A stretch of DNA of 20,000 nt from an uncultured virus (IMG/VR IMGVR_UViG_3300042399_001449) (taxonomy: Duplodnaviria; Heunggongvirae; Uroviricota; Caudoviricetes): IMG/VR virus record IMGVR_UViG_3300042399_001449; one strand, 5' to 3'. Below, in pieces: positions 8,152 to 20,000 of the stretch (its first letter is position 1; every line of letters begins with the position of its first letter). The translations under genes and the position numbers were made by a program. The notes beneath the pieces are model-generated. The model was not told the origin of the DNA. It did no database searches and was given only the letters and a program-made list of their open reading frames with translations.

Positions 8152-8160
8152 TTTCTACCT

Positions 8161-9540
8161 TTATTTACTATTTAATATGTAAGCAGCTTCTTTTTGTCTT
8201 CGTTTTGCATTGATGCCGCCGTTATGTGATTTTAATTGTAATACTGCTTGTGCAATATCATTTATATTTTTTGTTTTCATTGCACTGATAACATTGCTAG
8301 GTAAACTACCATAATTATATGCAATTGATACTAATGCTGAAACAGTACCTTTATTTAATCCGTCTGCATGTTGTAATACTTTCGGAATAAACTCGTCAGA
8401 CAGCCTACGTGATAAATCTCGAATTCCATCTTCCTTAGTAACAGTTATATCAGGTTTTTCTGATCTATCTGCAGATAAATGTTCAATGTTACCAGATGCA
8501 TCAGTTACCGTGCTACTTCCGTATCCAATTCTCCAATTATTAACATCCCAATAAGCTTCAGAACGGAATCCTTCAAAACCAGCCAACAAAGCTGCGGCTT
8601 GCTTTAATATTGGATCTGAATAATTTGCACCTGATATTGATCCTATTCCAATCAATGAAGCTAATGACATATCAGTGTCTTCTTCGCCCGCAGATGTGTC
8701 AGTTCCAATTTCTCCAGCTTTTTTAAATAAAATATTTTTTGTTATTGTATCTAATTTCCCGGTTGGGTCTTGTGTAATGTCATGTTGGAATTTAATTAAT
8801 CCACTTTTTGTATGAGGGCCGAAAATACCATCAACACCTTCGCGGCCAACTGAATATCCTAATTTAATTAAAGCAGATTGCATTTTAAAAACATCAGGAC
8901 CTTTATCGCCTACTTGCAATAATGCAGTGTCTTCTGGTTTAATTTCTTTGGTTGAATCCACATCAATTAAATCTAATACTTGACGTTTCCATTGACTTGC
9001 AATTTTTTTGTGAGCGTCCGAATCTAAATGAACGTGATCTTTTGTAAAATCAATTTCCGTGAAATCTCCAGTATCAATTATAACATCTGCAGACGTTTGA
9101 GTTTGAAGCCAATCTGATATTTTATCGTTAGCTGGGTATCCGCCTTTTCTATAATAAGCATCTCCAGGAGTAACAAAATCTTTTGTTGGATTAGTTATAA
9201 CAACTAATTTTGCTCCAACGTTACGTACCATATCAAACATTGTTTCAAAATTTCTAATAGCATTTACTGGCGATTTTGAAGCGCCATCATTACCACCACC
9301 CATTATTGATACAATATCATACTTATCAGATAAGCTATTTTGAAGCATTGTTAAAATAGCAGATGTTGAAGCTCCATTTTTAGCAACAATCGTTCCATCA
9401 ATTTGTTTAGATCGTACTAATATACGAGCATAACTCCAATCTGCTGCAGTTTGTGAATCACCAACAAACAATACTCGAAGTTTCTTATCTGATGTTTTCT
9501 CAGTAATAATTTCGTTTAATATAGATCTTAATTTTATCAT
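8161..9540 (-). CDS. Modular lysin: SGNH/GDSL esterase + peptidoglycan-binding domain + GH24 lysozyme
   Basis: SGNH blocks FVGDSQT, KNGAST, GGGND, DHVH; PG_binding_1 GDKGPDVFKMQSALIKLGY..DGIFGPHT..FQ; GH24 FEGFRSEAYWD..IGYGS..ALVSIAYNYG..RRQKEA. Confidence 0.9.
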   Translation of the reverse strand: MIKLRSILNEIITEKTSDKKLRVLFVGDSQTAADWSYARILVRSKQIDGTIVAKNGASTSAILTMLQNSLSDKYDIVSIMGGGNDGASKSPVNAIRNFETMFDMVRNVGAKLVVITNPTKDFVTPGDAYYRKGGYPANDKISDWLQTQTSADVIIDTGDFTEIDFTKDHVHLDSDAHKKIASQWKRQVLDLIDVDSTKEIKPEDTALLQVGDKGPDVFKMQSALIKLGYSVGREGVDGIFGPHTKSGLIKFQHDITQDPTGKLDTITKNILFKKAGEIGTDTSAGEEDTDMSLASLIGIGSISGANYSDPILKQAAALLAGFEGFRSEAYWDVNNWRIGYGSSTVTDASGNIEHLSADRSEKPDITVTKEDGIRDLSRRLSDEFIPKVLQHADGLNKGTVSALVSIAYNYGSLPSNVISAMKTKNINDIAQAVLQLKSHNGGINAKRRQKEAAYILNSK

Positions 9541-9686
9541 TTTCCTTGACTTACATATGCCTTAGTATAATTAGTTGCATTCTTGCTTCTACTTGTTTTA
9601 GTTTTAGCATGAACTCCAGGTCTTTTAACCTTCGGTTTCGAGATATGCATCTTTGCACTATTGCTGTTTACTTTTTTTGCTGCCAT
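9537..9686 (-). CDS. Small very basic protein (49 aa, not in ORF track)
   Basis: MAAKKVNSNSAKMHISKPKVKRPGVHAKTKTSRSKNATNYTKAYVSQGK; AAGGA upstream; ATGA overlap with the lysin. Confidence 0.75.
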   Translation of the reverse strand: MAAKKVNSNSAKMHISKPKVKRPGVHAKTKTSRSKNATNYTKAYVSQGK

Positions 9687-9763
9687 AGCTATTTCCTTTA
9701 AATTAAAACTAAACTAATAACATTGTTGGCCTCCCAACTTAAAAGAAATAACTTATTATATTA

Positions 9764-9771
9764 ATAAATAT
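9764..9771 (-). promoter_or_regulatory. Putative late promoter ATATTTAT
   Basis: Immediately after a terminator, heading the 9686-6000 operon. Confidence 0.5.
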
Positions 9772-9778
9772 GGGACAC

Positions 9779-9808
9779 AAAAAAAGCTCGAGGTCGAAAC
9801 CCCAAGCT
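9779..9808 (-). terminator. Intrinsic terminator with TTCG loop
   Basis: Minus strand AGCTTGGGGT-TTCG-ACCTCGAGCT followed by a T run. Confidence 0.85.
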
Positions 9809-10989: not shown

Positions 10990-11604
10990 TTAAAATGATG
11001 CAGTTTGTGAGCCATCGCGATTAGCACGCCATTGAGTGGCATCCTCACTTCCATCGGGTGTCCAATAATCATCAGCATCTTCAATACCAGTAGCATCAGG
11101 CTGCGCTCCTGCTGTCTTGCGAACCAGGAATAAACGAGTTGCCCCTTGCACTACTTTGAATGCTGCTAAGTCAGAGTTGCTTTGCAACAATTCCGTGTAT
11201 ATTCTAGTTTTTTGTGCGCCCTTGGCGTCATATGTGTCGCTTCCGCTAACATCAATCACATCCACTCCGGGCTGCGTATTGGCAAAATCGCGAATTGCTT
11301 CACCTATTGTCTTGAAAAGACGAAATGTGTTTAATTCGCCTTGAGCCGCTGATTGGCGAGTAGTGGTTGTCCAACCTTCACCGTCTTTGCTACGAACAAA
11401 ATAAGCAAATTGCCATTCTCCGGTGTCTCCGTGCTGACTGTGTTTCCATTTGGTCATGGTCATGGTGATGGGCTGGGAATCGGCCTCAAACTTTGCTTCG
11501 AATGATTCTGCGTCGCCCCAATTGTCCTGCCATACAAATTGGGTCGCGTACGGTGTCACGCTCCCCAGAGAGATTTCCGCTAATAAATCCTTTAATCTAA
11601 TCAT
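10990..11604 (-). CDS. Hypothetical protein with MIRLKDLLAE leader; paralogue of 12038..12532
   Basis: GELNTFRLFKTIGEAI..KTRIY aligns with GVTLRVMSTITSII..RMRLY. Confidence 0.82.
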   Translation of the reverse strand: MIRLKDLLAEISLGSVTPYATQFVWQDNWGDAESFEAKFEADSQPITMTMTKWKHSQHGDTGEWQFAYFVRSKDGEGWTTTTRQSAAQGELNTFRLFKTIGEAIRDFANTQPGVDVIDVSGSDTYDAKGAQKTRIYTELLQSNSDLAAFKVVQGATRLFLVRKTAGAQPDATGIEDADDYWTPDGSEDATQWRANRDGSQTASF

Positions 11605-13098: not shown

Positions 13099-13121
13099 GT
13101 CTCTCTTGTTATATATTAATA

Positions 13122-13322
13122 CTACTTACCTAATAACTCTTGTACATTCTCTAATGCTAGCTTGGCTCCGAATTGAATTGCCATTTGCATTAGCACTAAG
13201 TCCATGCTTCCTTGATTTGCTTTTGCAAATGACTCTAGGTACTCTCTGCGGTCTGGAGTTGCAATGAAGCTTCTCTCTAATCCTTTTAACTCTGCTGCTA
13301 CAAACTCTTTTACTTTTGTCAT
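13122..13322 (-). CDS. Early hypothetical protein
   Basis: 66 aa; promoter, hairpin and AAGAGAGAGT-ATG upstream. Confidence 0.8.
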   Translation of the reverse strand: MTKVKEFVAAELKGLERSFIATPDRREYLESFAKANQGSMDLVLMQMAIQFGAKLALENVQELLGK

Positions 13323-13373
13323 ACTCTCTCTTATTAGTTAATTAAGCTTAGGGCCTTTCCCTAATTGCTATAT

Positions 13374-13413
13374 ATAAAGATAAGGTTTATCGGGATAGGA
13401 TCCTAATCTTTTT
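13374..13413 (-). promoter_or_regulatory. Early promoter copy 1 (AAAAGATTAGGAT-N15-CTTATCTTTAT)
   Basis: Repeated motif; TTAG-N20-TATCTTTA fits the Bacteroidota TTTG-N19-21-TAnnTTTG consensus. Confidence 0.8.
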
Positions 13414-13440
13414 GCCGATTTGTTTGATTTATTTTACAGT

Positions 13441-13470
13441 AGAAACCGACACCTTTCGATGCCGGCCTCT
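13441..13470 (-). terminator. Terminator-like hairpin after the ATPase
   Basis: AGAGGCCGGCATC-GAAA-GGTGTCGGTTTCT, 13-bp stem with G-U pairs; weak U tail. Confidence 0.7.
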
Positions 13471-13495
13471 TTCATATTGAGAGATATGATATGTC

Positions 13496-14443
13496 TTATG
13501 CCGCGATGATCTGCTCTGCAATTAAATTCTCTACTTCATCTGCCGGGAAGCCCATCGCCGCAATTCGTGATGCTTTGATAAAACTTCTTAGGTTGATGTC
13601 TACTCCGTCATACTTAGCGTGGAGCGCCTTCATAACATCTAATGCTTGTTGCTTTGCCGCTAATGGAATACGTGACTCCATGGTAGGTAACAACTGCTCC
13701 ATTCTTGTAAACATTTGCTCAGTGTTCATGCTAATGTCTGCTACAAAGCTACGGCTACGGATCGCCTCATCTAATTTGCTTTGGTTGATGTTTGAGATAA
13801 AAATGATCTTACCTGTGAACTCAAAGCGTGATGGGATCGGTTCGCCAAACTCATCTTTCAAAGGCTTCGTTGAGATATATGAGATCTGACGAGTGTCATA
13901 TGAGTCAAGTGCCGCCTTAAGGATATTGACTGCATCATCATCTTTGAATACTGAATCACAATCATCTAATACTACAATCTTGTCTGAGTTAGCATACAAT
14001 GTCATATACAAACCTGCCGCGGTTGCTTTACCTTTGAAATGCTCAAAGTCATATGACTCCTTCAAGCCCATTTGCTTTAGTGTCTCTTTAACAAGGTGCG
14101 TCTTGCCGACACCTGCCATACCTGTGATGACCAATGATGGTTGAATGCCTCGCCCTACCATTTTAGTCAGACGCTCCAAGTTGCCAAACATTGTCTCAGG
14201 ATCTCTAGTCTCAACTACTGACATGAATGACATCTTGCTAGGTGCTGATGGTGTTGAGCTTGTTGTGGTACTATCAAGTCTTGTTACTCTGCCGTTTGGA
14301 GCAACCATTAACAACTGACGATTCTTTTCTGCATTAAGCAATTGAATGTGTCGGATCAAATCTTTTCCTGCAATCTCTCCTGACTTAACATTTTTTGCTA
14401 CTAATTTACCTTTTACTCTTACTGGTTCAAATACGTTCATCAT
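13496..14443 (-). CDS. AAA+ family P-loop ATPase
   Basis: Walker A GMAGVGKT, Walker B IVVLDDCD, sensor-1 IIFISN, arginine finger AIRSRS. Start at 14443 is preferred because GAGAGAG directly precedes it, as in neighbouring genes. Confidence 0.9.
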   Translation of the reverse strand: MMNVFEPVRVKGKLVAKNVKSGEIAGKDLIRHIQLLNAEKNRQLLMVAPNGRVTRLDSTTTSSTPSAPSKMSFMSVVETRDPETMFGNLERLTKMVGRGIQPSLVITGMAGVGKTHLVKETLKQMGLKESYDFEHFKGKATAAGLYMTLYANSDKIVVLDDCDSVFKDDDAVNILKAALDSYDTRQISYISTKPLKDEFGEPIPSRFEFTGKIIFISNINQSKLDEAIRSRSFVADISMNTEQMFTRMEQLLPTMESRIPLAAKQQALDVMKALHAKYDGVDINLRSFIKASRIAAMGFPADEVENLIAEQIIAA

Positions 14444-14496
14444 CTCTCTCATGATTTAATTATAAATGCGTCTTGGGCCTTTCCCTTTCTGCTTAT

Positions 14497-14536
14497 ATAA
14501 AGATAAGCATTTTATTTCAATTAACCTAATCTTTTT
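14497..14536 (-). promoter_or_regulatory. Early promoter copy 2
   Basis: ATAAAGATAAG-N15-AACCTAATCTTTT on + strand. Confidence 0.8.
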
Positions 14537-14551
14537 CAAGAAAAGTTTCAA

Positions 14552-14701
14552 TTATTTTTCCTGGTGGATTTCAGCAATTGCGGCTCCAATTGTATTGAGT
14601 GCATCGCCGAATAGATGCTTCATGTTATTGGCTACAATGAATACGTGCATTGCTATTAATAATGCATTTGCGTCCTGGATTTCTTTTTTGCTTCTTATCA
14701 T
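14552..14701 (-). CDS. Early hypothetical protein (49 aa, not in ORF track)
   Basis: MIRSKKEIQDANALLIAMHVFIVANNMKHLFGDALNTIGAAIAEIHQEK; AAAAAGAGAT-ATG leader. Confidence 0.7.
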   Translation of the reverse strand: MIRSKKEIQDANALLIAMHVFIVANNMKHLFGDALNTIGAAIAEIHQEK

Positions 14702-14765
14702 ATCTCTTTTTTTACGTCCTAATGCCCTAACATTTCTGCTAGGGCTTTGGACTGAGAGATATATC

Positions 14766-15182
14766 TTATTCTTCTATGTCTAATTCAGCTAACTCATCTA
14801 ACTCCTCAGGATAAACAGGACCTTCTTCGTCTGCTTCAGCTTCCTCATCTTCTTCTTCGTCTTCAACAAGCTCCTCCAACTCGTCGCGGATGCTATTGTA
14901 TACATAATCAAAGTCGACTGATACATCACTTAAGCTAACTACATTATTCCAATCTAACTCAAACTCCGCGGAGTCTTTATCTATCAACTCGCGTCGGTCC
15001 ATTTGGTCTACGGCACTTTGGATCTTGTCCATTAACAAGTCAAACTGCGCGCCTTTGAGGCTGAAGCCTTTTGGAGCTTCGTCTTCCAACATACTTAATG
15101 CTGTCAATACTAAGTCGATCGATACTACTGACGTCAATTCTTTAGCGCCTTCTAACTTTGCAATCAATTCAATTTTTTTCAT
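14766..15182 (-). CDS. Highly acidic early protein
   Basis: 138 aa with a D/E-rich tail; AAAAAGAGAGATT-ATG leader. Confidence 0.85.
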   Translation of the reverse strand: MKKIELIAKLEGAKELTSVVSIDLVLTALSMLEDEAPKGFSLKGAQFDLLMDKIQSAVDQMDRRELIDKDSAEFELDWNNVVSLSDVSVDFDYVYNSIRDELEELVEDEEEDEEAEADEEGPVYPEELDELAELDIEE

Positions 15183-15235
15183 AATCTCTCTTTTTTGGTT
15201 TTTAAACTGTGGGACTATTCCCTAACTTCCTTATA

Positions 15236-15274
15236 ATAAAGATAAGGATAATAATGATGCGATCCTAATCTTTT
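15236..15274 (-). promoter_or_regulatory. Early promoter copy 3
   Basis: ATAAAGATAAG-N15-ATCCTAATCTTTT. Confidence 0.8.
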
Positions 15275-15296
15275 GGTAACTTTTTTTAAACTTTTT

Positions 15297-15509
15297 TTAA
15301 ACTAATTTTAACATTGTTCCGATTGCTTTAACCGTGTACCCATGATCCTTTAAAAGGCCTGATATAACTGTTTTCATACCTGGTGCTGGTACTATTAGGT
15401 TCGGAGAACAACTTCTAAATTGATACTGTGTGCCTGGCGTCGAGTCTGGTAATGTGTTACCATCAACTAATCCGAACTGACTTAATAATGCGATTGCGTC
15501 TTTTAACAT
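15297..15509 (-). CDS. Early hypothetical protein
   Basis: 70 aa; own promoter and AG-rich leader. Confidence 0.75.
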   Translation of the reverse strand: MLKDAIALLSQFGLVDGNTLPDSTPGTQYQFRSCSPNLIVPAPGMKTVISGLLKDHGYTVKAIGTMLKLV

Positions 15510-15529
15510 ATCTTTCTCTTTTTATTTTA

Positions 15530-15569
15530 TTAAAGATAAGGTTAATAATGATAGGATCCTAATCTTTTT
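15530..15569 (-). promoter_or_regulatory. Early promoter copy 4
   Basis: TTAAAGATAAG-N15-ATCCTAATCTTTTT. Confidence 0.8.
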
Positions 15570-15589
15570 GGAACTTTTTTGAAACTTTT

Positions 15590-15736
15590 TTACTTGAATC
15601 GGAACTTGTCTAATTCTGCTTCAACCTCAGCTAATGCTTGGCCTACTTCATCATCTTGGAAGAAACACTCCCAATACTCCATGATTGATCTCAATGCTTT
15701 GATCTTTTCTTCTAACGGCTTCATCTCTCTTTTCAT
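15590..15736 (-). CDS. Early hypothetical protein (48 aa, or 44 aa from 15724; not in ORF track)
   Basis: MKREMKPLEEKIKALRSIMEYWECFFQDDEVGQALAEVEAELDKFRFK; AG-rich leaders before both ATGs. Confidence 0.68.
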   Translation of the reverse strand: MKREMKPLEEKIKALRSIMEYWECFFQDDEVGQALAEVEAELDKFRFK

Positions 15737-15742
15737 CGTCTC

Positions 15743-15841
15743 TTAATTATAAAGTTCAACATATATCAATGCGCTTACAGCTAAGGTTGCTTGAGTCACT
15801 ACGCGCTTAAACTCCTCCGGTGTGAATCCTTCTGGTATCAT
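15743..15841 (-). CDS. Early microprotein (32 aa)
   Basis: MIPEGFTPEEFKRVVTQATLAVSALIYVELYN; ATGA overlap with the upstream ORF. Confidence 0.55.
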   Translation of the reverse strand: MIPEGFTPEEFKRVVTQATLAVSALIYVELYN

Positions 15842-15960
15842 TCTGCGGTTCTGATTGTGTAAATAATTCCCGGGAATACAAACAATATTCCTAAGTCGTT
15901 ACCTCCTGCTAAAAGGATTCCTCCTACTGCTACTGATGCTAATGTTAAAAAATCTCTCAT
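15838..15960 (-). CDS. Early hydrophobic microprotein (40 aa)
   Basis: MRDFLTLASVAVGGILLAGGNDLGILFVFPGIIYTIRTAE; AAAGAGAG-ATG directly after promoter copy 5. Confidence 0.65.
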   Translation of the reverse strand: MRDFLTLASVAVGGILLAGGNDLGILFVFPGIIYTIRTAE

Positions 15961-16004
15961 CTCTCTTTGGTTTTAAATTAAGGACCTTTCCCTAATTGCT
16001 TATA

Positions 16005-16044
16005 ATAAAGATAAGTATAATAATGTTCGAATCCTAATCTTTTT
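16005..16044 (-). promoter_or_regulatory. Early promoter copy 5
   Basis: ATAAAGATAAG-N15-ATCCTAATCTTTTT. Confidence 0.8.
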
Positions 16045-16064
16045 GAAACTTTTTTTCAGAAATG

Positions 16065-16805
16065 TTACAGGTATTGTTCCAATAGCTTGATGCCTGGTAA
16101 GCCTGCTAATGCAATCTCAGCTTGACGGACCAATTGACGAGCGCGCTCATTTGTGATGCCCATCTCTTCACCAATCTGCTCCATGCTCTGAGCATACTCC
16201 ATACCGATCCCATAATTGCGACGAATGGCTTCTTCTTGCTTAGGCTTCAATTGACTCAATGCTCGATTGATATCAAATGTCATGTCCGCGCGGTCTCTGC
16301 CTGATCGTGTTGCCTCAGCTTCTAAGAAGCGATCCGCATAAGTCTCTTTGTTATCATCATCGCCTACCGGAGTTGAAATACTCTTGGTTGAATACTCCTC
16401 AGTTGCCGTACGGTGTGATGGGATCCTTACAACACGGGACAAATCATTGAGTGCCTTCTGAAGCTCGGCTCTGATATACCATACTGCAAAGGTAATAAAC
16501 TTGACGCCTTTAGTTGGGTCGAAACGCTCAGCGGCTTCAAACAATCCTACATTAGCGAACCCAATAAGGTCTTCTAACTGCAATCCCATACCTTGATATT
16601 GCTTAGCTACCTGGATCGCAAATCGCAAATTAGACTCAACCAATTTATTCATAGCGCGTGTGTCTCCCGCTTGGATTTGGTTTGCTAACTCAATCTCTTG
16701 CTCTCGTGTCAAGGTTGCTAACTTTTTAATCTCACGCATATACTGCGTTGTGCTCTCTGCTGTTGCTACTATAGCTCCGGTGCTTACATGAATTCTTTTT
16801 GCCAT
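16065..16805 (-). CDS. Phage-encoded sigma-70 family RNA polymerase sigma factor (RpoD/SigA-like, shortened region 3)
   Basis: Region 1.2 YMREIKK..LTREQEIELA; region 2 LVESNLRFAIQVAKQY..DLIGFANVGLFEAAERFDPTKGVKFITFAVWYIR; region 4 SMEQIGEEMGITNERARQL. Confidence 0.93.
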   Translation of the reverse strand: MAKRIHVSTGAIVATAESTTQYMREIKKLATLTREQEIELANQIQAGDTRAMNKLVESNLRFAIQVAKQYQGMGLQLEDLIGFANVGLFEAAERFDPTKGVKFITFAVWYIRAELQKALNDLSRVVRIPSHRTATEEYSTKSISTPVGDDDNKETYADRFLEAEATRSGRDRADMTFDINRALSQLKPKQEEAIRRNYGIGMEYAQSMEQIGEEMGITNERARQLVRQAEIALAGLPGIKLLEQYL

Positions 16806-16811
16806 CTCTCT

Positions 16812-16904
16812 TTATTTACGTGAATCTATTATTGATACTATTGATGCTACTAATCCCGTTACGACTATCGCCGCCATCGTGATACCTATCGCCGCCATTA
16901 TCAT
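16812..16904 (-). CDS. Single-TM microprotein (30 aa)
   Basis: MIMAAIGITMAAIVVTGLVASIVSIIDSRK; ATGA-coupled to 16901..17092 and ends just before the sigma leader. Confidence 0.55.
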   Translation of the reverse strand: MIMAAIGITMAAIVVTGLVASIVSIIDSRK

Positions 16905-17092
16905 CTTACGAAGCGCGGATTCAATTTAGCCTTAGCTTCTTGCTCTGCGCGGTAGATTCGGTTGCGCTCTCCTGCTGCTAAAGCTGCTTTAACGATTGGA
17001 CTAATTTCTCTTGCTCTACGTGCATCTCTTGCAAATTGACCAATTACTGCATCTTGCTGAAACTTTCCTGAATTTTTTTTGCCTATTGCCAT
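16901..17092 (-). CDS. Basic early protein
   Basis: 63 aa, R/K/A-rich; AAAAAGAGAGAA-ATG leader. Confidence 0.78.
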   Translation of the reverse strand: MAIGKKNSGKFQQDAVIGQFARDARRAREISPIVKAALAAGERNRIYRAEQEAKAKLNPRFVR

Positions 17093-17136
17093 TTCTCTCT
17101 TTTTTATGATTGGGAACCATTTCCCTTTCTGCTTAT

Positions 17137-17175
17137 ATAAAGATAAGCATTTTATCTTTCGAATCCTAATCTTTT
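17137..17175 (-). promoter_or_regulatory. Early promoter copy 6
   Basis: ATAAAGATAAG-N15-ATCCTAATCTTTT. Confidence 0.8.
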
Positions 17176-17569
17176 AGGAGAAAAGTTTCGAAAATGTTTC
17201 TGCTTGTTTTAAGCATTCAAATACGCCGGAATCATTCTTTCCCCATATTTCAGCTTTGCCGGTATGACCGCATTTAGGAATTACTGTGAATAAAACTCCG
17301 TTCTCATCACATATACGGAAATCATCATATAATGGTCCATTCATCGGACAATTATTTTTAAAGAACACATATGTATCCAAGATGTCAACTTGAGTTGCTG
17401 CAACAAACTTTTTTACCTTTGGGAACAATGCATTTGCTTTGCGCTCTAATGATGAATCTTTGCAGAACCAATCATAAAAGTTAAAACAATCATTTTCTGA
17501 TCCTTCACTGTCAATGATTCTGCCTGATGCAAACGCATTCAATTGTTCTGCTAAATTTACTTTTTTCAT
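17174..17569 (-). CDS. Conserved-looking phage hypothetical protein
   Basis: 131 aa; FYDWFCKDSSL and YVFFKNNCPMNGPLYDDFRICD motifs. Confidence 0.85.
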   Translation of the reverse strand: MKKVNLAEQLNAFASGRIIDSEGSENDCFNFYDWFCKDSSLERKANALFPKVKKFVAATQVDILDTYVFFKNNCPMNGPLYDDFRICDENGVLFTVIPKCGHTGKAEIWGKNDSGVFECLKQAETFSKLFS

Positions 17570-17587
17570 ATCTCTCTTTTTATTTTA

Positions 17588-17627
17588 TTAAAGATAAGCA
17601 TTTTATCTTTCGAATCCTAATCTTTTT
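17588..17627 (-). promoter_or_regulatory. Early promoter copy 7
   Basis: TTAAAGATAAG-N15-ATCCTAATCTTTTT; spacer identical to copy 6. Confidence 0.8.
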
Positions 17628-17647
17628 GCAACTTTTTTTAAACTTTT

Positions 17648-17908
17648 TTACTGGAATCGTCTTTGCAAATTATCCAATCCAATGCCTTGTTCCGGAGCTA
17701 TTTGCGGAATTACCACGCCGGCTTTAATAAGCGCTTGCATTAGCTGATTAAACGGGACAAAGCCATTCGGATCAAATTGGTCCAGGTAAGTGTCTGTACA
17801 TGCTCGGCTTGAATCAAATTCCTCATTCAACTCTGCCTCAAGCAATGTTTCCAAAAACTGTGCTATCTCCGTTGCTAACACTAAATCAATCTTAAATTCT
17901 CTTTCCAT
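17648..17908 (-). CDS. Acidic early hypothetical protein
   Basis: 86 aa; AAAAAGAGAGAT-ATG leader. Confidence 0.78.
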   Translation of the reverse strand: MEREFKIDLVLATEIAQFLETLLEAELNEEFDSSRACTDTYLDQFDPNGFVPFNQLMQALIKAGVVIPQIAPEQGIGLDNLQRRFQ

Positions 17909-17930
17909 ATCTCTCTTTTTAAATTAATAC

Positions 17931-17969
17931 TTAAATATACCGATAATATCAATGCGATCCAACCTTTTT
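17931..17969 (-). promoter_or_regulatory. Early promoter copy 8 (degenerate)
   Basis: TTAAATATACC-N15-ATCCAACCTTTTT. Confidence 0.65.
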
Positions 17970-17985
17970 GCAAACTTTGTTTAAA

Positions 17986-18165
17986 TTATTTTGTAAAGGT
18001 TATTACATAATCTAAATCCCATGATGTTTTTACATTAACCTTAAATCCATGGAATCTGCCTAATTGCTGTACATAATCCATAAACGACATTTGATCCTCG
18101 GGATGAGCTTTAGCCTGATATACATTATATTCAGCTCTTAATTGCAATTCTAATTTCCTTTTCAT
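17986..18165 (-). CDS. Early hypothetical protein (59 aa, not in ORF track)
   Basis: MKRKLELQLRAEYNVYQAKAHPEDQMSFMDYVQQLGRFHGFKVNVKTSWDLDYVITFTK; own promoter and AG leader. Confidence 0.72.
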   Translation of the reverse strand: MKRKLELQLRAEYNVYQAKAHPEDQMSFMDYVQQLGRFHGFKVNVKTSWDLDYVITFTK

Positions 18166-18180
18166 ATCTCTTTCTTTTTT

Positions 18181-18219
18181 ATAAAGATAAGCATTATAAT
18201 GTTCGGAAACAACCTTTTT
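18181..18219 (-). promoter_or_regulatory. Early promoter copy 9
   Basis: ATAAAGATAAG-N15-AAACAACCTTTTT. Confidence 0.72.
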
Positions 18220-18369
18220 CTAATATTTGTTTCGAATAACTTTAATGGTTTCTCTCACACCGGTTGCACATCTGCGGATTTCAACATAACCCAATTTAAT
18301 GTCAGTGATGCACTCAATTTTACCTTCTTTGATTTGTTGCTCTACGGTTCTTACTTTTAATCTTTTCAT
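18220..18369 (-). CDS. Early hypothetical protein (49 aa, not in ORF track)
   Basis: MKRLKVRTVEQQIKEGKIECITDIKLGYVEIRRCATGVRETIKVIRNKY; sits exactly between two promoters. Confidence 0.7.
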   Translation of the reverse strand: MKRLKVRTVEQQIKEGKIECITDIKLGYVEIRRCATGVRETIKVIRNKY

Positions 18370-18380
18370 AGCCTTTTTTT

Positions 18381-18420
18381 ATAAAGATAAGCATTTTAAT
18401 GTTCAGATCCTAATCTTTTT
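18381..18420 (-). promoter_or_regulatory. Early promoter copy 10
   Basis: ATAAAGATAAG-N15-ATCCTAATCTTTTT. Confidence 0.8.
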
Positions 18421-18437
18421 CCAGAAAAGTTTGCTGG

Positions 18438-18812
18438 CTAACTAAAGCCAACAAACCCTTTTTCTAATTCAATCTCTAAATCTTCTGCTATCTCTTTTAA
18501 ACGGAATAAAGGAGCATCTTCTAATTCTTGTATTACTCTTTCAGATACTGCTGCTACATCATATCCATATCCAAACCCGTAACATGTAATAGCTCTTTGG
18601 ACGTTTTCTAATTTTTCTGGAGCTAAAATCCATTCAACATCGGACATAAACTCTTCTCCCTTATCCTCTTGGAATTCATTTATTGCATCATTCCACATTC
18701 CTAATACCGTCTCGCGAACCACATCTGCTACTTGCTCATTGTGAGCATACATCTCTGAACTCCATGGCTTTGTAATTACAATTCCAAATTCTACTTTTGC
18801 TTCTTTTTTCAT
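18438..18812 (-). CDS. Acidic early hypothetical protein
   Basis: 124 aa, Glu-rich; AAAAAAGAGAT-ATG leader. Confidence 0.82.
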   Translation of the reverse strand: MKKEAKVEFGIVITKPWSSEMYAHNEQVADVVRETVLGMWNDAINEFQEDKGEEFMSDVEWILAPEKLENVQRAITCYGFGYGYDVAAVSERVIQELEDAPLFRLKEIAEDLEIELEKGFVGFS

Positions 18813-18854
18813 ATCTCTTTTTTTATATTAAGGACCATTCCCTAATTGCTTATA

Positions 18855-18893
18855 ATAAAGATAAGCATTTTTAGAATGCGATCCTAATCTTTT
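18855..18893 (-). promoter_or_regulatory. Early promoter copy 11
   Basis: ATAAAGATAAG-N15-ATCCTAATCTTTT. Confidence 0.8.
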
Positions 18894-18915
18894 CCAAGAA
18901 AAGTTTCAGAAAAGT

Positions 18916-19149
18916 TTATCTTTTATCTACAAGGAAGAATCTTTCAAACACTTCCGGTGGAAACTTTGACGGCTTTTCATCTGCATAGTCCATATCAAAG
19001 CGAACTACATAATTACCTTTCTTGGTAATTTTAATCAACTCGCCGAATATCATATTATTATTCGCAATGTTGTCTCCTATCTTAACATTGCCGGCCTTAA
19101 GGTCAACTGGTACAAATCCTACTGCAATCAATCTTTCTCTTAAACTCAT
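18916..19149 (-). CDS. Early hypothetical protein (SH3/KOW-like)
   Basis: 77 aa; VKIGDNI..GELIKI..YVVRFD pattern. Confidence 0.78.
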   Translation of the reverse strand: MSLRERLIAVGFVPVDLKAGNVKIGDNIANNNMIFGELIKITKKGNYVVRFDMDYADEKPSKFPPEVFERFFLVDKR

Positions 19150-19164
19150 AGTCTCTTTTTTATA

Positions 19165-19320
19165 TTAATAACTAATTAAATCTGCTAACGTTTCTCCCGT
19201 GCTAACACCGTTACGGGTAATTTCATAATTCGGATCCATGCCCGAATACATTACATCATCCAACAACTCGTCGATGCTGGTAAACTCTTTCTCATAATAA
19301 CTACAATTCAAACTATACAT
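19165..19320 (-). CDS. Acidic early protein (51 aa, not in ORF track)
   Basis: MYSLNCSYYEKEFTSIDELLDDVMYSGMDPNYEITRNGVSTGETLADLISY; AAAAAGAGAGATAT-ATG leader. Confidence 0.75.
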   Translation of the reverse strand: MYSLNCSYYEKEFTSIDELLDDVMYSGMDPNYEITRNGVSTGETLADLISY

Positions 19321-19344
19321 ATATCTCTCTTTTTAATTAATAAT

Positions 19345-19383
19345 ATAAAGATAAGTATAATATCAATGCGATCCTAATCTTTT
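19345..19383 (-). promoter_or_regulatory. Early promoter copy 12
   Basis: ATAAAGATAAG-N15-ATCCTAATCTTTT. Confidence 0.8.
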
Positions 19384-19414
19384 CGGAAAAAAGTTTCGAA
19401 AATGTTTTCAGCAG

Positions 19415-19708
19415 TATAGGCACCGCCTAAACGATGCCCGGACTACTACCCGATCAAGGTAAAGAGAGAGAAACCCGATCAGCTTACCTAACGTCGGACC
19501 GCCGGGTGCGTCTTTCGAGCGCGTTATTCCCGGACCCTGCCGACATTTATGGTATGACGGTGTTAGCTACATGTAGCTTGTGGTTGCCATACCGGTTTGA
19601 TCCATGTTCTGTTTATAGGATAGACCTTTCCCAATACGTATCTATATTTAATATCCTTGTGGCCGCCTTTCAGCATTTGGTTGGATAATAACCCTTCCTT
19701 CTTATTTA
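19415..19708 (-). ncRNA. Candidate structured non-coding RNA (~290 nt) with a CU-rich loop
   Basis: GC-rich, no credible CDS. Consecutive hairpins at 19419-19438, 19452-19480, 19493-19544, 19551-19593, 19622-19632 and 19652-19687; GAAA tetraloops and G-U pairs mostly favour the minus strand; class-2 promoter immediately upstream. Confidence 0.55.
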
Positions 19709-19713
19709 CATTT

Positions 19714-19746
19714 ATATAATATGAAATCTATGTCTAGAATCCAACC
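19714..19746 (-). promoter_or_regulatory. Class-2 promoter (GGTTGGAT-N15-CATATTATAT) upstream of the candidate ncRNA
   Basis: Same boxes and 15-nt spacer as 1854-1886 and 2856-2888. Confidence 0.6.
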
Positions 19747-19818
19747 ATACGCGCGCAAATATTCCGGAAAGTTTCGTCTCTCAATAGCTAGCAAACCGAA
19801 CTAAAACCGCATATACGT

Positions 19819-19990
19819 TCTAAAAGTGCGGCATGCATCTAAAAATAGATTCTAAAAATAACGGCATATTGCTCTAAAAATCGTCTAAAAATAGAACCCA
19901 TAACACATAAGCTTCTAAAAATAGAACTAATCCGTCTAAAAATAGAAGCATTCAGGATACTATATATAATGACACAACGCATCTAAAAAT
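19819..19990 (+). repeat. Cluster of TCTAAAAAT(AG) direct repeats
   Basis: Exact 9-mers start at 19838, 19851, 19873, 19884, 19914, 19935 and 19982; degenerate copy at 19819; non-coding; probably continues past the window edge. Confidence 0.85.
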
Positions 19991-20000
19991 GAATCGTGAT

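Follow-up and report, generated by a model that had tools for sequence, protein, structure and literature searches.

The stretch analyzed here, which we call the window, is the last 20 kb (20,000 nucleotides) of a 72,273-bp IMG/VR record from an uncultured tailed phage (IMGVR_UViG_3300042399_001449), for which CheckV gives a completeness of 43%. The source record is labeled G000 below, and related loci carry L numbers. Nearly all genes lie on the minus strand, both in the window and in the record. On that same strand, upstream of a block of early genes, lies a candidate structured non-coding RNA. One of its hairpins displays a CU-rich loop, and this loop is the complement of a short purine leader that directly precedes the start codons of the early genes. 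The elements at the center of this analysis are as follows.

19713 to 19746, minus strand: promoter-like box, class N, GGTTGGAT-N15-TTCATATTATATA (also written GGTTGGAT-N-TATTATATA), in front of the RNA; putative in function and timing
19395 to 19709, minus strand: candidate structured non-coding RNA, about 310 nt, both ends inferred; recognized by a GC island, fold z score, consensus pairs, and no family match
19493 to 19544, minus strand: long hairpin P4, GUCGG...GGGUCCGGG..GAAA..CCCGGCGG..CCGAC; the best-conserved helix in relatives, with compensatory pairs
19483 to 19491, minus strand: module M5, single-stranded UUAGGUAAG; an invariant block in the homologue alignment
19480 to 19452, minus strand: CU-loop hairpin GAUCGGGU-UUCUCUCUCUUU-ACCUUGAUC; the loop, UUCUCUCUCUUU, is 12 nt long (19461 to 19472)
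19409 to 19449, minus strand: 3′ hairpin that closes the RNA unit in this phage, taken from the fold; no canonical terminator was called
13101 to 19332, minus strand: early-gene block with 10 AAGAGAG leaders, defined by motif counts and duplex energies
19331, 17917, 17578, 17101, 16812 (sigma factor), 15967, 15731, 15192, 13332, and 13107, minus strand: first A of each of the AAGAGAG leaders

A structured RNA on the early-gene strand

The RNA coincides with an island of high G+C content, 0.52 at 19400–19599 against 0.31–0.36 on the flanks. The minus strand of 19400–19700 folds to −89.9 kcal/mol with a z score of −2.41, and 1 of 100 shuffled sequences folded equally well. The plus strand of the same region folds no better than its shuffles (z score of +0.33). 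The 12-nt CU loop stays open in minimum free energy (MFE) folds, GAAA loops occur in the region, and the sequence UGAUCGGGU is found at both 19448–19456 and 19473–19481. A preliminary description of the window had pointed out the hairpin at 19452–19480, the repeat, and the GC-rich multi-hairpin non-coding region with its GAAA loops, and we recovered all of them, with the structure on the minus strand.

The same description had proposed a comparison with Rfam, which turned up no known family at either stringency. The families of Rfam 15 (LhrC, RsaE, RNAIII, C4, tmRNA, 6S, and Flavo-1 among them) gave no match at the gathering score across the whole window, and a permissive Rfam scan of 19250–19900 returned only noise (E > 2). 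ARAGORN found neither a tRNA nor a tmRNA, and a blastn search of the RNA region against 50,697 phage records gave no match. No terminator-like sites were called in 19250–20000; the CU hairpin of the window has no U-run behind it, unlike an intrinsic terminator, in which a U-run directly follows a GC-rich stem with a short loop. A plus-strand open reading frame (ORF) of 84 aa at 19434–19688 had no Pfam or PHROG match. We rejected it as a protein gene because of this and because the homologues vary by large hairpin insertions and deletions together with compensatory pairs.

Loop–leader complementarity in the early block

In sequence, the CU loop complements the leader AAAGAGAGA, which has nine matches in the window. 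Eight of these are minus-strand copies with an ATG immediately behind them, and the ninth, on the plus strand (19461–19469), is the loop itself. The chance expectation is 0.30 matches, and none of 200 shuffles reached nine. Across the entire 72,273-bp record, AAGAGAG has 10 minus-strand copies, all 0–4 nt before an ATG and all within 13101–19331 of the window, and a single plus-strand copy, again the CU loop.

We also calculated duplex energies between the CU loop and the start regions (positions −25 to +6), with a threshold of ΔG ≤ −8 kcal/mol. Among crudely picked ORFs (ATG starts, at least 45 aa, non-overlapping), 13 of the 14 early ones reached this threshold, compared with 6 of the 80 others. 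Only 2 of 200 shuffled loops matched the observed median duplex energy. Loop–leader complementarity is confined to the early block, and the figure of about 15 early genes in the preliminary description was a fair one. That description also had the loop occluding the start codons, which does not hold: loop pairing reaches leader positions of about −1 to −12 and leaves the start codon outside the duplex. It is a second motif, described below, that covers the AUG.

The early block encodes small proteins without a family match, a sigma-70-type factor (16065–16805), and an AAA ATPase (13496–14452). No RNA-binding domain was found in the early proteins among the two sets of 17 and 9 submitted to Pfam, which include all 14 early ORFs and a 49-aa ORF. 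Nine early promoters of the form AAAAGATTAGGAT-N14-15-CTTATCTTTA lie within the block. Three of the 10 leaders (16812, 15731, and 13107) have no early-type promoter in the 75 nt upstream and are preceded by coding sequence. Therefore, the leader motif is part of the mRNA start region and not of the promoter.

Four of the early 5′ untranslated regions (UTRs; 13354–13364, 15215–15225, 15985–15995, and 18835–18845, minus strand) have, downstream of the promoter and ahead of the leader, a small hairpin built around UUAGGGAA(A/U)GG. This motif has four matches against 0.69 expected and resembles the conserved UUAGGUAAG of the RNA.

Conservation of the RNA and its loop in related phages

Using the sigma factor as bait, we collected 45 related loci from viral contigs. 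Homologues of the RNA region were recognizable in 19 of these, about 3 kb upstream of the sigma-factor gene and on the same strand. An alignment of 26 homologous CU hairpins contains 20 distinct stems around an invariant CUCUCU(U) core, and in 25 of the 26 the motif sits in an open loop of 12–16 nt with the sequence UU(U)CUCUCUCUUAUU(U). By this comparison, the CU loop is the most conserved part of the RNA, on a stem that changes freely. A metagenome scan with an 18-nt loop pattern gave at least 82 matches in at least 80 loci, many of them by chance. Among the scan matches listed, 22 had at least five stem pairs by a crude, register-sensitive count, and these were used solely as extra stem examples.

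In G000 and in three complete relatives (160–169 kb), TCTCTCTTW has exactly one copy on the early-gene strand, the loop, and 9–16 copies on the opposite strand, which are the leaders. The three complete genomes contain 13, 11, and 17 copies of AAGAGAG-N0-4-ATG, all on one strand and nearly all within a 6–10 kb block directly downstream of the RNA.

Nine full-length homologues could be aligned, giving 55 consensus pairs, 22 of which show compensatory changes. There are also many G-U pairs, compatible with the RNA strand alone. In the 5′ helix, for example, UGAUCC:GGAUCA becomes UGGUUC:GAACCA in L150. The consensus further contains a second helix (AGAGCCGG:CCGGCUCU), the GGGUCCGGG...CCCGGCGG hairpin with a GNRA-type loop, UUAGGUAAG, the CU hairpin, and a single-stranded module, AACAUAUCUCUCAA, that is absent from the RNA of the window. 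None of the 5′ modules could be matched to a known RNA. A scan with the P4 pattern gave matches in 13 viral contigs. At the level of sequence, these comparisons firmly indicate a genuine element, its strand, its structure, and an invariant loop on covarying stems.

The remainder of the unit varies considerably. Structured RNA lies between the promoter-like box and the unit end in the window, L003–L006, L009, L018, and L039. In L007, L010, L020, L029, L031, and L037, a promoter-proximal, hydrophobic mini-ORF (27–29 aa, or 64 aa in L037) stands instead of or beside it, and there are peptide-coding units that lack the 5′ domain yet carry two CU hairpins. A tRNA-Met lies inside the homologous unit of L024 (5712–5785), and an Rfam search of eight homologous loci gave a tRNA in L078 (tRNA-like insert at 378–490) as its sole match. 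One or two CU hairpins are the constant feature of this unit, which otherwise behaves like a cassette of changing content.

In most relatives the last CU hairpin, with a stem of 10–13 bp and a loop of 13–16 nt, is followed by a U-run. Units of the L007 type have a separate UUCG-loop terminator after the CU hairpin. Terminator loops of 13–16 nt are long and unfavorable for termination. Because the relatives' last hairpins have such loops despite the U-run behind them, we suggest that the loop sequence is kept for a reason other than termination.

AGAGAG leaders were not found in the more distant sigma-bearing phages L040–L047. In a distant subgroup, whose sigma factor is about 60% identical, the leader is UAAGAGAU-AUG and there are no CU loops; here CAUAUCUCU(A/U/G) adjoins terminators or sits in a hairpin loop. 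In one distant sigma-encoding phage (L042, 11460–16893), 13 genes share the leader (A)AGTAACT directly before the ATG.

A second anti-leader pairs with a start site in cis

A second motif, CAUAUCUCUC, is the antisense of leader and start codon together (GAGAGAUAUG). Its gene-strand copies lie in the RNA of relatives, directly after the stop codon of gene 14766–15182 (Element 1), and after the AAA-ATPase gene (Element 2). Each copy lies just 5′ of a GC hairpin.

14754 to 14764, minus strand: anti-leader of Element 1, AUAUAUCUCUC, 1 nt downstream of the stop codon that ends gene 14766–15182
14716 to 14752, minus strand: GC hairpin of Element 1, inside the stem that anti-leader and leader form
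14699 to 14713, minus strand: leader and AUG of the next gene (14552–14701), predicted to be masked in cis by Element 1
13479 to 13488, minus strand: anti-leader of Element 2, CAUAUCUCUC, 7 nt downstream of the stop codon that ends the AAA-ATPase gene (13496–14452)
13446 to 13466, minus strand: terminator-like hairpin with a U-run, after Element 2

In the RNA of relatives, CAUAUCUCUC is unpaired in the consensus structure. The module has an exact 10–13-nt match to early start regions in 6 of 7 cases. Most of the matched start regions are kilobases away, and that of L025 lies about 190 nt downstream. In the three complete genomes, the exact 10-mer in antisense is confined to the early block. 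We also considered CAUAUCUCUC as the start of an antisense gene and rejected this, since ORFs from that ATG run for 2–129 codons with no consistency over 61 instances.

The anti-leader of Element 1 pairs with 14699–14707 in the MFE fold, its partner start lying 50–70 nt downstream. This cis pairing has at least 9 bp and ΔG ≤ −9.3 kcal/mol in 13 of 16 distinct homologues and is weaker in the other three. Furthermore, the L018 lineage (identical in L019 and L039) has CAUGUCUCU:AGAGACAUG where the others have CAUAUCUCU:AGAGAUAUG, a compensatory change. This shows leader:anti-leader pairing to be under selection in this phage. The alignments thus support such pairing in cis at this one other site, and Element 1 looks like a case of start-site masking with translational coupling. 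Since Element 1 clearly acts in cis on the next gene, cis action has to be weighed for the CU loop as well.

Element 2 is conserved at the same place in most relatives. Together with the terminator hairpin behind it, it could give rise to a 3′-UTR-derived anti-leader RNA. We found no cis partner within 110 nt, either for Element 2 or for the module inside the RNA.

The putative promoter of the RNA and upstream repeats

The class-N box in front of the RNA also precedes the homologous unit in relatives, as GGTTGG-N15-T..TATWATATA, and has just 1–4 copies per complete genome (160–173 kb). As the preliminary description had noticed, it belongs to a different class from the early promoters, its sequence differing from that of the nine early boxes. 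From its position, the RNA would be independently promoted at the head of the early-gene block. A second class-N promoter, ATTGGAT-N17-TATTATATAG, lies at about 1830–1861 of the window (minus strand) before gene 1273–1815, and the leader of that gene is AAAAAGAG-ATG.

19819 to 19990, plus strand: eight clustered copies of TCTAAAAAT (seven exact, one with one mismatch), upstream of the RNA promoter

In relatives, these repeats (read as ATTTTTAGA from the RNA strand) border the promoter and extend into it; they could be regulator sites or iterons. We considered an origin of replication, with iteron-like repeats plus a promoter, and rejected it because it leaves the covarying helices and the loop–leader complementarity unexplained.

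Phage type, host, and translation signals

G000 has T4-like capsid, portal, and terminase genes. Among cultured phages, Flavobacterium phage immuto has the most similar capsid protein (57% identity); a homologue of the sigma factor was not found in that phage. G000 DNA is present in lake-water metagenomes. The host probably belongs to the Bacteroidota, and the hosts of the group are probably Flavobacteriia-like. The phage also encodes the ribosomal protein bS21 (PF01165, 45.9 bits, above the cut-off) at G000:C1:11047–11178 on the minus strand (ORF 11008–11253), outside the window. This gene sits in the structural module, between the capsid gene (8154–9785) and the portal gene (14150–15994) of G000, and all four complete relatives likewise have a PF01165 match above the cut-off.

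Bacteroidia ribosomes work without Shine-Dalgarno (SD) pairing, as bS21, bS18, and bS6 sequester the 3′ tail of the 16S rRNA, according to PMC6847099 and PMC9976891. We looked for SD-like 4-mers at −18 to −4, with in-gene positions as a control. Such a 4-mer was present in 21 of 49 late genes (control 6 of 49), in none of the 14 early genes (control 6 of 14), and in 10 of 31 genes of the remaining region (control 4 of 31). The early and late genes therefore carry different translation signals. Duplex energies against a generic anti-SD 12-mer were uninformative, with medians of −2.4 to −2.9 kcal/mol everywhere. The late genes also share a TATTTATATAAA box; TATTTATATA has 10 minus-strand copies, nine of which lie 13–26 nt before the nearest downstream ATG.

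Interpretation

Our best reading, held with moderate confidence, is that the window encodes an anti-leader RNA that masks the early start regions. Its functional part would be the hairpin, which displays a CU-rich loop of 12–16 nt as the Watson-Crick complement of the leader (A)AAGAGAGA(U). This leader, 0–4 nt before the early AUGs, that of the sigma factor included, would pair with the loop. The single-stranded CAUAUCUCUC in the RNA of relatives would pair likewise and would cover the AUG. With its start region paired in this way, an early mRNA would be closed to the 30S subunit, its translation would fall or stop, and the duplexed mRNA would perhaps also decay. We infer that the RNA is transcribed, that it acts in trans, that it represses rather than activates, and that it does so after the early genes have been expressed. 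The preliminary description had proposed that a single RNA, expressed later, could shut off the entire early regulon. What stands of this is a real, conserved, structured RNA on the minus strand with a unique loop. It is not the only anti-leader, as CAUAUCUCUC is also found in two 3′ UTRs and in the RNA of relatives. Overall, that interpretation is partly supported.

Several points weigh against a masking RNA that acts in trans. There is hardly any variation in leader or loop within the close family, and on the phylogeny the presence of both counts as roughly a single evolutionary event, so that loop–leader covariation is weak. The sole pairing backed by a compensatory change is that of Element 1, in cis and not in trans. 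The commonest loop (..CUCUUAUU) is a perfect match to AAUAAGAGAG leaders, which make up 99 of 445 instances, and has one mismatch to the AAAA-type leader, the commonest at 134 of 445. A shared leader does not need an anti-leader, since no anti-leader for the leader of L042 is found in the 18 kb seen of that phage. The window's own RNA is without the CAUAUCUCUC module, and one RNA would need to titrate 11–17 mRNA species. Evidence of a transcript was sought in four RNA-labeled runs, which gave only short, strandless contigs for 18000–20000, mostly from relatives (85–99% alike), many of them fitting only in part and possibly derived from DNA; one such contig of 232 nt, likewise strandless and possibly DNA, covers 19303–19491, across the CU hairpin and the next promoter. 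Finally, with no terminator called in the window, read-through into the first early gene is possible.

This last point leads to the main rival, that the anti-leaders are cis-only insulator or coupling devices that mask the start of the next gene on read-through transcripts. The next gene would then be translated just from the transcript of its own promoter, or when a ribosome on the upstream gene melts the stem. Element 1 appears to do this, with its anti-leader right after a stop codon and paired to an AUG 50–70 nt downstream. No terminator was called for the RNA of the window, which is followed by another leader after about 120 nt, and in L025 the 12-nt match of the RNA module is to the first gene after the RNA. 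However, read-through should be low in most relatives, where a strong CU stem of 10–13 bp is followed by a U-run, and in L004 the gene behind the RNA has no early-type leader at all. Element 2 and the module inside the RNA are partnerless within 110 nt, and a motif confined to a loop is ill placed to form a long stem in cis. We judge cis-only action to be unlikely, although it is the strongest of the competing explanations.

Another explanation is that the loop is a binding site for a host or phage protein, for example, S1, or the bS21/bS18/bS6 pocket that holds the pyrimidine-rich 16S tail in Bacteroidia and for which the loop would be a decoy, with the leader complementarity as a by-product. 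The phage and four relatives do encode bS21, PMC9976891 has bS21, bS18, and bS6 sequestering the 16S 3′ tail in Bacteroidia, and an invariant loop on variable stems is also typical of a protein site. A protein site leaves unexplained why the second anti-leader is an exact complement of the AUG and the bases before it, and it does not account for the pairing that is demonstrably in use at Element 1. The Pfam scan of the early proteins also gave no RNA-binding domain, and we consider a protein-binding loop distinctly unlikely.

The CU hairpin could instead be a mere terminator or stability hairpin of a stable-RNA or peptide cassette, targetless, with its loop kept by descent or mutational bias. 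The U-runs behind the last hairpin in relatives fit this, as do the tRNAs or small hydrophobic peptides in some of their units. It is hard to reconcile with 20 stem versions around an invariant loop core, with two CU loops in some units, with the separate UUCG-loop terminator of the L007-type units, or with loops of 13–16 nt that are unfavorable for termination. We regard it as improbable.

The opposite effect, in which the RNA is an activator or adaptor that aids translation or stability of early mRNAs in a host that does without SD pairing, had been offered as an alternative in the preliminary description. The probable Bacteroidota host and its probable lack of SD use speak for it, as does the absence of SD-like 4-mers from all 14 early genes as against their presence in 21 of 49 late genes, and the RNA stands first in the early block; we found no other support. 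Pairing at −1 to −12, and over the AUG too for the second motif, falls inside the ribosome footprint and would block the initiator tRNA. No ribosome-docking part was found in the RNA, and early genes need translation before any phage RNA accumulates. An activating role thus has very little chance of being correct.

Scarcely credible, too, is a purely structural role, with the CU loop in a kissing contact to a leader-like GUAAGAGAG loop of the RNA's own 5′ domain: GCCGUAAGAGAG(G)CG is indeed found in the first hairpin of 6 of 10 full-length homologues (L062, L054, L069, L078, L132, and L150), but the window RNA, with GAAA, and 4 of the 10 (including L051, the same as the window here) carry GAAA, GCAA, or UUAA loops, and the peptide-coding units without a 5′ domain keep two CU hairpins.

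The anti-leader RNA may also be part of something larger, a private, stage-specific initiation code in hosts whose ribosomes disregard SD sequences. Early purine leaders that adjoin the AUG and do not resemble SD sequences would be switched off as a class by CU anti-leader RNAs and 3′-UTR anti-leaders, and the SD-like late leaders would be served by ribosomes remodeled by bS21; a stable-RNA operon, with tRNAs in relatives, would be the source of the anti-leader. As a joint reading this is rather unlikely. If it is true, the RNA of the window would correspond, as an RNA, to RegA/RegB of T4 and would make up half of a switch that changes ribosome specificity from early to late.

Bacteroidota initiate translation without SD pairing, and to our knowledge, little is known of how their phages program translation. 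The early class here is tagged by a single purine leader, and conserved CU elements that complement it are carried by a dedicated RNA, by 3′ UTRs, and by a masking stem in cis. Because the family encodes bS21 and its late leaders are SD-like while the early ones are not, these elements offer concrete, testable RNA signals for the open question of what phage bS21 is for. For work in Flavobacteria and Bacteroides, the leader and loop pair could also supply an orthogonal part for controlling translation.

Comparison with known systems

Element 1 recalls the RNA phage MS2, in which translational coupling works by start-site masking. Here too, an anti-leader beside the upstream stop codon would sequester the next start, and the terminating ribosome would be expected to open the stem. 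Unlike in MS2, masking would be done by one copy of an anti-leader motif that recurs across the genome, with a stable GC hairpin inside the stem.

The c4 RNA of phages P1 and P7 and the CI RNA of phage P4 are phage-encoded, structured, processed antisense immunity RNAs, whose loops pair with leaders of transcripts from the same region. They act on one operon in lysogeny (ant, or P4 early transcription), whereas the RNA described here belongs to a lytic T4-like phage, would have 10–17 targets, and has no Rfam match. In Staphylococcus aureus, RNAIII and small RNAs (sRNAs) of the RsaE type use pyrimidine-rich loops as seeds against the start regions of many mRNAs. This analogy, drawn in the preliminary description, is apt; the staphylococcal RNAs differ in that UCCC motifs pair with SD sequences in Firmicutes, and there is no Rfam match here.

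Class-wide shut-off is familiar from T4. According to PMC3014915, RegA competes with ribosomes on about 30 mRNAs and RegB cuts GGAG in early intergenic start regions. An RNA-based, post-transcriptional temporal switch would do what T4 does with these proteins, namely, shut off early or middle mRNAs as a class through a shared feature of their start regions. The effectors in T4 are proteins, and the effector proposed here is an RNA. The RegA family (PF01818) had no match in G000 and four complete relatives, a search that had no positive control and so leaves its absence unproven.

The phage also resembles the freshwater Bacteroidetes phages encoding bS21 that were reported by Chen et al. 2022 (PMC9723584). 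The likeness extends to lake water as a source, to a bS21 gene in the structural module, and to phage control of translation initiation as a theme. The words motif, UTR, non-coding, sigma, and early are absent from its main text, and the leader/anti-leader system is not described there. The system is conserved among the phages examined here, and we did not find it described in the literature searched.

LhrC of Listeria monocytogenes comes closer still than RNAIII and RsaE. According to PMC4132741, redundant CU-rich sites in a stem-loop, a single strand, and the terminator loop bind purine-rich start regions and block translation. LhrC is a host sRNA directed against SD sequences, whereas the RNA here is phage-encoded and 250–500 nt long, has extra conserved helices, and would be directed against a phage-private, non-SD leader of a whole temporal gene class; the two are unrelated in sequence and by Rfam. 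In layout they agree, with a single-stranded CAUAUCUCUC plus one or two CU loops. By its sequence and predicted structure, the CU-loop RNA would thus work like the CU-loop sRNAs while belonging to no described family.

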